A stretch of 64,000 bases of DNA from Ramazzottius varieornatus (taxonomy: Eukaryota > Animalia > Tardigrada), in NCBI GenBank assembly GCA_001949185.1, contig BDGG01000008.1:1364001-1428000 (forward strand), given 5' to 3'. The notes under the pieces are model-generated. The model saw only the letters and a list, made by a program, of their open reading frames with translations, was not told the DNA's origin and searched no databases. Both the position numbers and the translations under genes were made by a program. Shown here one piece after another: positions 40,284 to 46,669 of this stretch; positions within the stretch are counted from its first letter, which is position 1; each line of letters starts with the position of its first letter.

Positions 40284-41993
40284 TCATCCCAGCAAACCGT
40301 TCTCGGCCAACCATCCAGCGGTGTTATCATCGCCCGCGAACTGAACCAGACCTTGCACTACAAAACAGAATATAAGAGACACTCAAACTATGCCGATGGA
40401 CGTACTGTACCACTTCCGACAAAACAGTAATAACCAGAAGCGAAGGTCGAAAGTAGGCTTTCCACATATCGTTTTGGTCACACAGCGTGAACAGTAGATC
40501 TCCGGCGTGATGACGAACACTACCAACATTCGATGTCAAGAGGAAGCATATCTTGTTCCTCAGCGAGTTCTCATCCTACCAAAAAAAGGCGTTAGTACTG
40601 CCCCAAATTTGCAAGAAGAAATATATCATCATAAAAGAGATATTCGTACCAGAGTCAGCCAAGAGATTTTCAGTTTGAGGTACGCCCGGTCCGCCGGCTT
40701 GGCTTTCGCTGCCTTCGCTAAAGCAGCCAAGATGGTCGTCAGCATGTCCGCGCTGGTAGAAGTGGTAGCTTGCAGGAAGTTCAATAGTTTGTCCATAGCG
40801 GCTTTGTCCGCACCTTCGGGAACCGATCCGTGCTGCTCGACTTGCGCTTGTGGTTCCTCGTGCTTGATCTTGATCTTACGGGTAACCTTCTTCGCGGTCC
40901 CCTTCGTCACTTTCGTGATGACTTTCCTGATAATGCTGCGACCACCTCGAGCGGCGGCGGGTTGAGAAGCAGCAGGTACCGCTGGAGCTAGAGGTGAAAT
41001 TCTCACTTCTCTGTTGTTCATATGGAAGTAGATGCGTGCACAAGCAGCTACATCCGCCAGCGCTCGATGGAGAACTCCCTTGGGTTCCTCACCGAAGAAG
41101 TGATGAAACAGGTCGGTCAGCTTCTGCCACCTATACGAACAGACAAAAAACGTCGGTTCGAGCATACCGTTCCACTCAGCTATGAAGAGTCAGTTGGCAG
41201 ATCGGCAATACACCCAAGTGGCGCACGTTTCGCGTGTTATTGGATGGAAGCGTGCGCGACTTGGTAAACGATCCTGACAAGTTTCCTTTACGAGCAGCCG
41301 TACGTCTGCCCTTTTTCTATTAATACGTCATGATGGTCAACGTTGTGCTCGGTACAAGCTTGAGTGGTATTTTCGTAGAAAAACGGCAGAGTCAACTCGC
41401 CTAGAGTCCCCCCCACACGGAAATTTCAACTTTGCAGTCTTTGCTACCTTTTCTTTCCGGTAACTCTGGCACTTTCTCGCATAGTGCAGCTCATCGGTAA
41501 GCTCGGCCAGTGTCCCATCAAATGTTGGTGTTTATGACGGCAAATTTCAGCGTGGATGACGCGAAAGTCAAAGTGGATGTTGTGTCCGACCAGCCGAGTG
41601 ACTCCCACCAACGCAGAGGCCAAAGCGTTCAGGACCATGTCGATGGGATGGCCTTCTGCCATCGCTTTGGCTCGGTTGATCCCGTGAACTCGTAGTGCAC
41701 CCCATGGAACTTCATTCTTGAATGTGGGCTTCACCAAGTAGGTTTGCTCATGATCCAACGTCCCGTCGTGACGGTATACGTGCCAGGCGATCTCTAGCAT
41801 GCGACATTTGGCCCAGGCACGTAAGCTAGTTGGAGCAGCCTTCGGTGGCAATCCGCTTGTCTCCTGCCATCAGAAAACAAAAGTCGCTGAAATATTTGAA
41901 TGAGTTTAATAAATCAGGAGAATCGGATATTTTGATGTACAGTACCATATTTACCGTATCGATAACCATAATTTTTCCGGGGTTGGCAGCCAT
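40284..41993 (-). CDS. DEDDh (DnaQ-like) 3'-5' exonuclease copy 1 with C-terminal RIC-8-like segment; exons 41993-41955, 41863-41448, 41130-40650, 40575-40470, 40357-40284 (last junction non-canonical)
   Basis: ExoI IDT|ETSG, ExoII GHNIHFD and ExoIII HRALADV are intact. The same ORF continues into a Lys-rich linker and GADKAAMDKLLNFL...LRNKICFLLT..V...AGDLLFTLC...GDDNTAGWLAENGLL. Confidence 0.8.
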
Positions 41994-42828
41994 TTTGCGG
42001 TCTTGGAGATAAGGGTTGGAACTTATGGAAATCAGCGCTTGATCTGAAAAAGGGAAGTCAACAGGCTAGACGAGACGGAAGGAAATTCGCCCAGAGGTAC
42101 TGATCTTACTCTGCCGACGGTTGTCGTTGGGTGGAACGAAAGTGGAGATGGGAGGCAGTCGAGATTCCAAACCTCGGGTCTTGAGTCAGGCAAAGGATGA
42201 ATGAACAAGAGGGAAATCATAAAGCAAGGATGACATGCTACGGTTTGTGAAAGAGTAGTTTTTCGGATGCTTTGCCTCTTTGGTCCTTTCGAGACCACGA
42301 AAGGAAGACAGCTGTTGCACAAACCGTTGCCGACCTACTATTGTTCGCCTCCAAGCTTGATTGCTCGATTAGCTTTCCATTTTGCATGCCCCGCCAATAA
42401 GTGACGCACAGCATCTCCGATACTGTACACGCAATGGACGGATCCCGCATCCCGGCACAAAGCTGCGGCCACGACGGTTCCGCTGCAACCCAATAAAATC
42501 TCGGTCCTTCCTAGGTCTCGCAGTGAAGGGGTTTCCAGGTTCGCACTCGTCACTTTCCAAAAGTCCAGTTCCGGGATCTTCAGTTCCGCGTATGGTCTTC
42601 CCATCAAGGTCTCGGATGTTGTTTACCACTAAGTTTAGTGGGCCAGAAGAAAACAAATCGTACTCATCTCAAATCTGGATTGAACGGTGTAAGCAGTATT
42701 CGTATAAGGAGAGGTCGCGATAGAGAAAAAGCTCTTGGCCTTCGCGCTTCTCCCAGGTTTCACCGGAAACCACGGTACCTGGCAATACACCAGCGTATTT
42801 TGTTCGTACTTTTTAATGTATGGTAGTA

Positions 42829-44633: not shown

Positions 44634-44857
44634 TACATGGAACTGGATTCATCTTTCTGTCCGGAAAGAGTCCAGTAGTTTTGCTGCGTGAAGTATGATA
44701 TATTTTTATTTGATCGAACCGAATGCACTACGTATGTGATTCTGACAAGAAAGATAATTTGTGAAACATAAAACAGGAAATAAATATCGTCCAGAAAACT
44801 CATAAAAATTACAAAAGATCAACACTGAACCCTCAAAGCAAAAATCCATTGTTTCCC

Positions 44858-46669
44858 TCATAAAACCAAGGCTCCGAAATTATACAAGAACAAAGCCGTG
44901 CACCCCACAGCCACCGCTACCAACGCGGCCACAGTCGGGGTAGTCTCGTAACTCCCAACCATAAACATCTCTTGAGGCTCCTCACTAGCCTCTTTCTCCG
45001 TTTCCGAACCCACTTCCGACTCTGGATCGGTCCCGGAGAACCCTTCATCCTCCACCGACGATTCATCCACGCTCAACTCACTCTCCAAGTTCAAAGACTC
45101 CTCTACTCCACCATCCACGCTTTCACTACTCAGAACTTCCGCTTTGATCTCCTGTCCATACCTCAAGAAGAAGTAAATCCTCGCACATGCTTCCACATCC
45201 GCATCTGCTCGATGCATCACCCCACTCGGCGGTTCCCCGAAACATTCTTCGTATAACACAGCCAGTTTGGTGTTCCGACCACTCGGCATAGTTTGAGCTC
45301 CCAACGTCATTGTACAGTCCGTAGGGATCTCTTCGAACATATCAGCCAAAGCCGTTTGCTTCGCTCTGTGCATCTCAGCTAAGATTACTCTGACATCGAA
45401 CTGAATGTTATGTCCAACTACCACGGAAGTATCGTCTAACGAAGTCTTGAAAATACTGAAAATATCCTGGATGGGTCGCCCTTCAAGGAGAGCCTTCTCG
45501 CGGGTTATACCATGGACCTTGACGGCGCCTGGGGGAATTTCGTAGGTGAAGTCGGGCTTGACGAGAAAGGCGTACTTGGAGAGGGTCTGGCCACAGGGAC
45601 AGTACATGTGCCAGGCTAGCTCGACCATCCGACACTTGTCCCAGGAGTCGAGGTCGTGTGGAGACGCTTTGGGTGGAAAACCCGTGGTTTCGGTGTCGAG
45701 GACCATAACGGAAGCGCCTTTGGACAGAACACAGTTACAGGAAGCCGATCTGGGCAGTGGCAGACTTGCAGAAGCTTCGTCGTTGGACACGTTTTCCTTC
45801 GTAATTCCGGTTTGATGAGTAGTGGCACCACCTACAAGAAAAACATTCGGTATTTGTACACGCGCCTGGCCTAAAAGTNNNNNNNNNNNNNNNNNNNNNN
45901 NNNNNNNNNNNNNNNNNNNNNNNNNNNNATTTAGGCCAGGCACGTGTACAGGAAATTACCATAGAAAAATTCGAATGTCGTAAAATCGCGTAACCGATGT
46001 AAATTAGTAAGATTCGATGCTTGTTAAAGGTATGAAAAATAATTTCAAATTTAGTGAGCTCGCTAGTTCACTCTACTCACTTGTTTTGGATAGGCCAGGA
46101 ATGGCCAGTCGGTAAAGCGACTTCTTGGTCGTCGCAGGCGTCCGTTTCTTTTCCACCACGGTAGCATTATTCGCTGCTGACCGATCTGGGGAAAATGATT
46201 GAGCCGTTTGTTCATTGGATTTGTAGTAGATGGCTTGAACATCTGGCACAACCTTCTCCAGGAGATTCGTTCCAATTTCCCTGACACGAGCCTCGTCATC
46301 AGCAGGTCCACAGAAGAACGCCATGACGTGCTCGTTCTTGCCCGAGCTCCGTTCTGACGGCATGGCCGTGCTGACTATGACGGACGATATCCTGTCCAAG
46401 TCACCACTGAAGTACAGCTGCTTAACTTGAGCCCATTTTGCATCAATCTGATCTCGCGGAAAGAACATGAGCCATTTTCCATTAGCGTCATCGTATTCAT
46501 ATGGCGCAGCAGAAGCTTCTAACCACATATGCTCGGCGTGAGTGGATGGATCCACGTTGAGATTCGTACAGAAACTGGTGCCTATCGAGCTTCGGGAAAC
46601 GTTCGGGTCTTCGTTCTCATCTTTCTGAGGCTCAGGAGCGTCGTTTAAAGTATCTTTGGATGCATCCAT
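44858..46669 (-). CDS. Predicted 520 aa fusion: DUF1917/Bles03-like domain + DEDDh exonuclease (copy 2) + acidic linker + C-terminal TM; exons 46669-46081 and 45831-44858
   Basis: Exon 1: GKWLMFF..IDAKW..VST..VMAFFCG..IYYKSNEQT. The phase-1 donor ACAA|GTGAGT matches the phase-1 acceptor TTTTTCTTGTAG|GT. Exon 2: LDTETTG, GHNIQFD, HRADADV and tail TVAALVAVAVGCTALFLYNFGALVL. Confidence 0.78.
45859..45946. mobile_element. TA-flanked TIR element spanning the assembly gap (N at 45879-45928), inside an intron
   Basis: CACGCGCCTGGCCTAAA on the left and TTTAGGCCAGGCACGTG on the right are inverted repeats with TA outside each. True length unknown. Confidence 0.75.

Follow-up and report, generated by a model that had tools for sequence, protein, structure and literature searches.

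The locus described here raises the question of how a tardigrade genome came to carry two DnaQ-type exonuclease genes side by side, from where they were acquired and what they might do. It lies at positions 40284–46669 of a 64,000-nucleotide stretch of Ramazzottius varieornatus DNA (assembly GCA_001949185.1, contig BDGG01000008.1, forward-strand positions 1,364,001 to 1,428,000; hereafter the window, to which all positions refer), and a preliminary description made from the sequence alone had proposed that it is a domesticated island of horizontal gene transfer (HGT). Our analysis indicates that the locus holds a real, expressed and conserved tardigrade gene pair, which most likely descends from a domesticated giant-virus gene and was remodelled by fusion. 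To the joint reading of origin and role, in which the giant-virus exonuclease would have been kept as a membrane-tethered enzyme clearing DNA ends, we assign a probability of roughly 0.42. A viral origin of the exonuclease domain taken by itself appears to us well supported and probable, and, given that origin, the odds of a DNA-clearing role, argued by analogy, are a little over half.

Two expressed exonuclease genes with different fusion partners

The two genes, copy 1 and copy 2, are co-oriented paralogues on the minus strand with the shared motifs previously listed for them, and both proved to encode DEDDh exonucleases. Their nuclease domains are 45–48% identical and match PF00929 (copy 2, E = 4e-17; middle exon of copy 1, E = 5e-6) with 63.6 and 27.6 bits for the two copies against a gathering cut-off of 24. 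The D-x-E (ExoI), D (ExoII) and H-x4-D (ExoIII) motifs are retained in both copies, and the residues D, E, D, H and D are invariant in 25 of 25 aligned relatives. Transcript-type contigs of four runs, drawn from two studies, fixed the gene models; the reading of these contigs as RNA rests on their GT-AG joints.

Copy 2 encodes a protein of 520 aa. Its first coding exon (46081–46669, starting with the ATG at 46669) contains a Bles03/DUF1917-like domain (approximately 46555–46100) behind a short acidic N-terminus, and its second (45831–44858) carries the whole DEDDh nuclease (D-T-E at 45697, ExoII at 45412, ExoIII at 45214), an acidic linker, a C-terminal hydrophobic helix and the stop, so that the nuclease is intronless as had been reported. 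The Bles03 and nuclease exons are joined within one contig in all four runs. The leader (46670–47200) contains introns at 46734–46823 and 47011–47179; in the fully spliced transcript no in-frame ATG precedes the one at 46669, and the spliced leader holds four out-of-frame upstream ATGs with a longest open reading frame (ORF) of 49 aa.

The intron between the two coding exons (45832–46080) includes a 50-N assembly gap (45879–45928), the flanks of which (45855–45950) form near-perfect inverted arms with 1 mismatch in 20, like a hairpin element or a miniature inverted-repeat transposable element that broke the assembly. Such a gap could be taken to speak for contamination or misassembly, to which we attach next to no probability, given that the spliceosomal introns are removed in contigs of two studies, that orthologues share a scaffold with the proteasome gene PSMD5 in three species, and that the third-position G+C contents of the two genes (0.567 and 0.560) fall within the 0.47–0.67 of six neighbouring frames.

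Copy 1 encodes 394 aa in four coding exons and combines the DEDDh domain with a basic linker and a Ric-8-like fragment. Downstream of an intron in the 5′ untranslated region (42044–42109), exon 1 (41955–41993) runs from the ATG to the D-T of ExoI, exon 2 (41448–41863) begins with the E of ExoI and includes ExoII at 41584, exon 3 (40650–41130) encodes ExoIII at 41069, an Ala/Pro spacer, a basic linker with 10 K/R in 30 aa and a helical segment, and the last exon (40327–40575) encodes the Ric-8-like stretch and then reads through a former intron to the stop. The two introns that had been placed within the nuclease domain are both GT-AG and are skipped in transcript contigs. One of them (41864–41954, phase 0) interrupts the D-T|E motif; two of the four runs show it spliced out, and a third has a loose end consistent with this. 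The other domain intron (41131–41447) and the last coding intron are spliced out in three of four, and run X4 also contains unspliced copy 1 pieces.

An extension of copy 1 to 40284 did not hold. The segment 40358–40469 is unspliced in all four runs, its would-be donor reads AT, and the stop therefore lies at 40327; because of this donor the final Ric-8-like exon is left out of frame (40284–40357), within what is now the 3′ untranslated region. The Ric-8 likeness of the last exon covers positions 306–340 of PF10165 (E = 3.3e-4, 20.3 bits, below the cut-off of 25.7), that is, 35 of its 447 positions, a fragment at most and not a full ARM domain. Three PDB searches for Ric-8 support returned nothing relevant, and neither the end of exon 3 nor the 3′ remnant has a Ric8 match in Pfam; we nevertheless take the 40284–40357 remnant and the segments flanking the Ric-8-like stretch to be Ric-8-like, an assumption that Pfam and PDB did not confirm. 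A separate Ric-8 gene, RvY_06970, appears in the published listing. The tail of copy 1 thus looks like a recent exon capture that is now decaying. The basic linker is likely to be nuclear-targeting or DNA-binding, and a soluble or nuclear role of copy 1 is likely.

Conservation among tardigrades

In the homologue search with the exonuclease, 120 of 250 matches were listed, and among these the only named eukaryotes were Hypsibius exemplaris (BV898_12917) and Paramacrobiotus metropolitanus (LOC129600181), both with the same Bles03-nuclease-helix layout as copy 2. The top five matches were tardigrade-type and were followed by a gap to environmental proteins at 37–46% identity; three unnamed proteins (P0001, P0003 and P0005) were counted as tardigrade by their tree position and layout. 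The tables of PMC11233135 pair the Hypsibius and Paramacrobiotus genes with R. varieornatus RvY_13201 and place PSMD5 (RvY_13199) on the same scaffold. In this window PSMD5 (37554–39505, minus strand, PF10508) lies two genes from copy 2, and in both other species it shares a scaffold with the nuclease gene, ten gene numbers apart in Hypsibius. The synteny check proposed in the preliminary description therefore came out positive in three tardigrade genomes, as far as these tables go.

Copy 1 also has an orthologue, P0005 (tree support 99/98–100/98), which has the same basic linker (14 K/R in ∼60 aa in each protein) without the Ric-8-like tail. For P0003 as for P0005 the longest contig on record measures 4,614 bases, which suggests the same tandem pair in another species. 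The anchored copies are 56–81% identical in protein. Their C-terminal hydrophobic helix, identified by hydropathy only (Kyte-Doolittle 19-mer values of 2.07–2.61 in copy 2 and four relatives), is found in five of six tardigrade-type proteins but in only 1 of the 261 other relatives; the helix was therefore presumably added after capture and kept. Of the contrasting linkers and membrane segment claimed earlier, the basic linker of copy 1 and the helix (five of five anchored relatives) stood, and the acidic linker was rejected as a conserved feature, because only two of the five, copy 2 and its closest relative P0001, have it in pronounced form. A split of the copies between membrane and nucleus would fit this anatomy, with copy 1 and P0005 bearing the basic linker and the other clade the helix.

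Host introns, expression, host-like codon use and conserved linkage are thus all present in this locus, as in a domesticated gene of horizontal origin. Together with the trees, topology tests and viral gene blocks described below, they bear out the earlier proposal of horizontal acquisition followed by duplication and host integration.

Origin of the exonuclease domain

A HMMER scan of 1.84 billion representative sequences gave 6,176 matches at E<=0.001, of which the best 150 were listed. The first five were tardigrade-type, and the sixth, P0121 (E = 3e-39), was 100% identical to a gene in the IMG/VR contig L250. In this contig the gene order is XRN1, Erv1/Alr, NUDIX, DEDDh, SNF2-type helicase and capping enzyme, a block that we take, from general knowledge of viral core genes, to mark a giant virus (Nucleocytoviricota, likely Imitervirales); the dense intronless coding of the block contigs agrees with this identity. 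The viral and bacterial loci compared are samples from 5–7 of 64 collection parts, and eight of 249 loci, picked by top score or tree position, were scanned for block markers. Two or more markers were present in six of the eight, one in L114 and none in L091. Among the sampled loci, the top three in a phmmer comparison with copy 2 were all block members (151, 136 and 125 bits), whereas the best of 138 long bacterial fusions reached 114 bits. Structure comparisons pointed the same way: the top viral folds found by Foldseek with the nuclease model were those of Fadolivirus, Pyramimonas orientalis virus and Faunusvirus (template modelling scores of 0.88–0.91 for giant-virus folds), and the first cluster of an Atlas structure search with the Hypsibius domain was 93% viral, most commonly Nucleocytoviricota.

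We then built careful trees from rows of known context, 33 in one and 34 in the other, including seven tardigrade rows. The latter formed one clade (support 100/99) among block members (89/82, 89/84), and tardigrade and block rows fell inside a group made up mostly of giant viruses (98/93, 86/91), with one other IMG/VR row among its members; a quick 95-row tree agreed. A nesting of the domains within a broadly distributed animal exonuclease clade, which would have argued for vertical inheritance, was not seen in these trees, built without animal ERI1, REXO and TREX rows.

The earlier suggestion of an affinity to bacteria and large DNA viruses can be narrowed to its second half. A bacterial donor, either the N-terminal proofreading domain of a Bacteroidota DnaE or an exonuclease of Patescibacteria or phages, is suggested by Bacteroidota matches at 33–40% identity, by the eggNOG label ‘dnaE, Bacteroidetes’ given to the Acutuncus orthologue in published tables, and by an Atlas feature search that ranked phage clusters first. 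We regard it as largely refuted and very improbable, since an approximately unbiased (AU) test rejected the grouping of tardigrades with eight Bacteroidota rows (p-AU 7.6e-8), bacterial scores were below those of viral-block members, and the best phage records reached only 31–32% identity and 60–71 bits. DnaQ and the Bacteroidota DnaE exonuclease belong to the same superfamily and are the best solved-structure matches, but the tardigrade proteins differ from them in having no polymerase partner and in missing the NCBIfam cut-offs for DNA polymerase III epsilon (TIGR01406, 52 vs 222.7 bits; TIGR00573, 25.4 vs 71.5 bits). The most likely donor, on these sequence comparisons, would be a giant virus rather than a bacterium.

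A non-viral history, in which the gene was inherited vertically or came from a eukaryote and viruses took it from hosts, is left some room by a second test: a tree with the block rows as their own clade, sister to the tardigrades, was not rejected (p-AU 0.083), against 89/84 support in the best tree for nesting of the tardigrades inside the viral family. The direction of transfer therefore rests on distribution. Moreover, 41 of the 95 rows in the quick tree are without name or context, and spliced eukaryotic genes are under-represented in the collections searched. We still consider this history unlikely because the two tardigrades are the only named eukaryotes among the matches listed, the human, Caenorhabditis elegans and Drosophila homologue columns for the gene read NA in the tables of PMC11233135, a single nuclease query against the PDB retrieved four sequences at E<=1, all bacterial and none eukaryotic, and the family is widespread in the giant-virus contigs sampled. 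A search of viral contigs for the context of P0129, P0008 and P0006 gave only relatives at 24–31%.

The viral origin that we prefer would imply extensive rebuilding. The stand-alone DEDDh proteins of giant viruses (Fadolivirus A0A7D3UQY0, Pyramimonas orientalis virus A0A7M3UNT5 and the uncultured block) have the same family motifs, and P0121 and P0006 are the closest in sequence to the tardigrade domains (39–44%), but the viral genes are ∼190 aa long and intronless, with neither a Bles03 partner nor a tail helix, whereas those of tardigrades contain introns, are fused to other domains and have been duplicated. We propose that a small intronless exonuclease gene of an Imitervirales-like virus entered the genome of an ancestral eutardigrade near PSMD5 before the split of Hypsibioidea and Macrobiotoidea, the direction being that suggested by distribution. 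An intron would then have joined the captured nuclease to a Bles03/DUF1917 exon and the tail helix would have been gained, after which a tandem duplication may have produced the helix-less copy with the basic linker. In R. varieornatus this copy would have gained two introns and acquired the end of a Ric-8-like gene, and a transposon would have inserted between the copies.

Three further features of the viral relatives were observed. In L010 (9998–17311), the DEDDh gene and the SNF2-type helicase are separated by a HECT-domain gene of 1,116 aa, an arrangement reminiscent of the mimivirus R349/R350 pair. The SNF2-type helicase of L250 (10614–13530) is in two overlapping frames, possibly an assembly error; it is in one frame in L090, where the exonuclease is identical. 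A DEDDh-DUF5710 fusion was found in seven of eight proteins scanned from one part of the tree (P0129, P0131, P0140, P0141, P0148, P0149, P0154, L091), and in the quick tree this subgroup is close to the tardigrade clade (support 91).

The Bles03 exon

The Bles03 exon of copy 2 passes the PF08939 cut-off of 23.1 with 24.4 bits (E = 3e-5), while the full Hypsibius and Paramacrobiotus proteins score below it. A standalone Bles03 search retrieved only P0265 (28.5 bits against the same cut-off), and the nearest standalone relatives in a profile search were three proteins at 38–40%. No Bles03 relative was found in viral contigs or phages, none in BFVD at E<=0.001, and none among 8,608 ORFs and proteins beyond the rows already found. 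A ready-made viral fusion of Bles03 and DEDDh domains was accordingly dropped as unsupported, and the exon would be of non-viral or unknown origin. Human BLES03 gave no sequence match and was not among the fold matches listed. In Paramacrobiotus, the published tables contain a second DUF1917 gene, LOC129590207, which is also up after radiation.

BLES03 has an eIF4E fold and has been proposed to be either a nucleic-acid binder or a phosphothreonine lyase with K159, 92% conserved, as the putative catalytic base (PMC4159009). In four tardigrade rows, the position matched to K159 reads I, K, L and R, under a tentative mapping to human numbering. With this proviso on the mapping, the variation at the catalytic-lysine position fits a Bles03 domain that would act as a basic nucleic-acid-binding pad.

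Fold and putative substrate

The nuclease model was of high confidence (pLDDT, the predicted local distance difference test, 96.5), and its neighbours among solved structures were PolC, DnaQ and DinG at Z 20–21.5, with DnaQ at 21.5. RNase T, TREX1 and ERI1 followed at Z 19.5, 19.3 and 19.2, so that a DNA substrate is only mildly favoured. A family profile searched against the PDB likewise ranked PolC and DnaQ above TREX2 and TREX1 (E 1.7e-6 to 2e-3), with no ERI1, REXO or PARN chain at E<=0.1; a single query retrieved no TREX chain at E<=1.

TREX1 is tethered to the endoplasmic reticulum (ER), degrades cytosolic DNA and has the order nuclease, disordered linker, helix (PMC12206365). Copy 2 resembles it in the DEDDh domain, linker and C-terminal membrane helix, and the helix-less TREX2 parallels the unanchored paralogue. 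The enzymes are not orthologous: identity to TREX1 is ∼20%, its match to the profile is weaker than that of bacterial enzymes, and it has no N-terminal Bles03 domain. Copy 2 would at best be TREX1-like in its putative mode of action, and it is not a member of the TREX family. By this analogy, the anchored copy would act at the ER or at mitochondria and remove DNA fragments that irradiation or drying releases. The more specific proposal of a TREX1/TREX2-like pair rebuilt from a giant-virus gene and clearing DNA after radiation or drying is one that we hold to be rather unlikely.

Published expression tables (PMC11233135) are consistent with such a role, with increases of about two- to three-fold in two species. 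After 1000 Gy, the H. exemplaris orthologue rose with a log2 fold change of 1.26 (adjusted P = 9e-10) and the A. antarcticus orthologue with 1.22 (4e-4), and the latter also rose with bleomycin (1.60; 6e-3). A P. fairbanksi row (0.83) was dropped as orthologue evidence because its best Paramacrobiotus match is another DUF1917 gene.

Several observations count against a DNA-clearing response to damage. The induction is modest, and bystanders rise too (PSMD5 by 1.17 and 0.68, BV898_12916 by 1.78). The gene id does not occur in two tables of PMC11233135, one of genes shared between radiation and bleomycin (1,381 rows) and one of proteomics (5,627 rows), nor in the supplement of the bleomycin paper PMC11413396. 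RNase T and ERI1 lie close to the DNA enzymes in the fold comparison. The viral DEDDh gene sits in its block among enzymes of mRNA turnover, namely XRN1, NUDIX decapping enzyme, SNF2-type helicase and capping enzyme, and the Bles03 model, weak as it is (pLDDT 56), matches eIF4E chains at Z 7.4 and 7.2, within background.

The last two points suggest a different substrate for an enzyme of the same viral origin: it may be a membrane-tethered RNA 3′-trimmer, deadenylase-like, with Bles03 holding the 5′ end or cap. It would be an independent parallel to PARN, which places a cap-type binding module beside its nuclease, and to PNLDC1. The latter is a DEDD enzyme with a C-terminal helix, like copy 2, and is linked to piRNA trimming (PMC5062988). 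The tardigrade exonuclease differs from both in origin and in having no CAF1/PARN, R3H or RRM match in Pfam at E<=0.1. In addition to the missing PARN, ERI1 and REXO chains, the closest solved folds act on DNA, and a shared function need not follow from conserved viral gene order. We thus regard an RNA trimmer as possible but doubtful, and rank it behind the DNA-end-clearing enzyme.

Another location was also considered. If the first leader intron of copy 2 is retained, as in contigs of two of the four runs, translation could start at the in-frame ATG at 47035, which would lengthen the protein by 92 aa (13 K/R, 1 D/E) to 612 aa, and this extension resembles a mitochondrial presequence in composition. 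The frame is open for 91 codons 5′ of ATG 46669 across two splice joints, for which the chance expectation is ∼0.013 by (61/64)^91, and the Hypsibius protein starts with a basic, acid-free stretch. A virus-derived long isoform might accordingly work in mitochondria, turning over damaged mitochondrial DNA or RNA at the inner membrane. Against this, an upstream ATG in frame is missing once the leader is fully spliced and Paramacrobiotus isoform X1 has no N-terminus of the Hypsibius type, and we consider the mitochondrial reading unlikely, if marginally less so than a non-viral history.

Relation to published gene lists

We found no paper describing the exonuclease gene, in a search that left outside subscription papers and the PMC5034306 classification of RvY_13200/13201; the main texts searched contain none of the identifiers BV898_12917, OQV12790.1 and LOC129600181. 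The 463-gene Hypsibius HGT list in S4 Data of PMC5531438 has no bHd1291x row and no such exonuclease, assuming that bHd and BV898 numbers correspond, although it does include four mimivirus-L728-like genes. Like the exonuclease pair, published tardigrade HGT genes have a foreign affinity, bear introns, are expressed and are conserved between species; the exonuclease differs in its absence from the list, in having no animal homologue in the tables and in having been rebuilt by fusion. The gene seems to have been overlooked or wrongly labelled in standard HGT screens because the donors are uncultured. Other giant-virus-affiliated tardigrade genes in published tables are the mimivirus L728-like genes and RvY_03415.

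Functional giant-virus genes are seldom documented in animal genomes. The present one appears to be old, to have persisted in two eutardigrade superfamilies and to have been remodelled with parts from the host. It is also a hint that early tardigrades encountered an Imitervirales-like virus in their germ line. Its layout represents a convergence on that of TREX1 and PNLDC1, and the locus offers a single-gene test case for the disposal of nucleic-acid debris after damage in tardigrades. If the TREX1/TREX2-like pair considered above is real, extremotolerance would owe one of its components to a virus, and the tail-anchored cytosolic DNase would have been invented independently.

Transposon and neighbouring genes

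The pogo transposon that had been noted between the two copies was verified as a decayed pogo-type (Tc2/Tc5-like) DNA transposon of 1805 bp (42829–44633, plus strand) with 62-nt inverted arms, TA duplications and HTH_Tnp_Tc5 and DDE_1 matches. Its transposase is broken into pieces in three frames. Contigs ∼95% alike align to it in three runs, indicating that further pogo-type copies are present or transcribed elsewhere.

The term HGT island proved too broad for this locus, as a single viral-type domain entered, the Bles03 domain is without a viral match and the flanks are ordinary animal genes. Besides PSMD5, these include an Ig-domain receptor tyrosine kinase (51588–54699, plus strand) with I-set/Ig and PK_Tyr_Ser-Thr matches, for which FGFR-like is the name used in the preliminary description. 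Next to PSMD5, the minus-strand segment 36158–36805 has a Tektin match (35.4 against a cut-off of 34.3). Farther away, an intact-looking frame of 450 codons (14627–15979, minus strand) matches DDE_Tnp_4 (Harbinger-type, E = 4.5e-30) and may represent either a transposase or a domesticated HARBI1-like gene.

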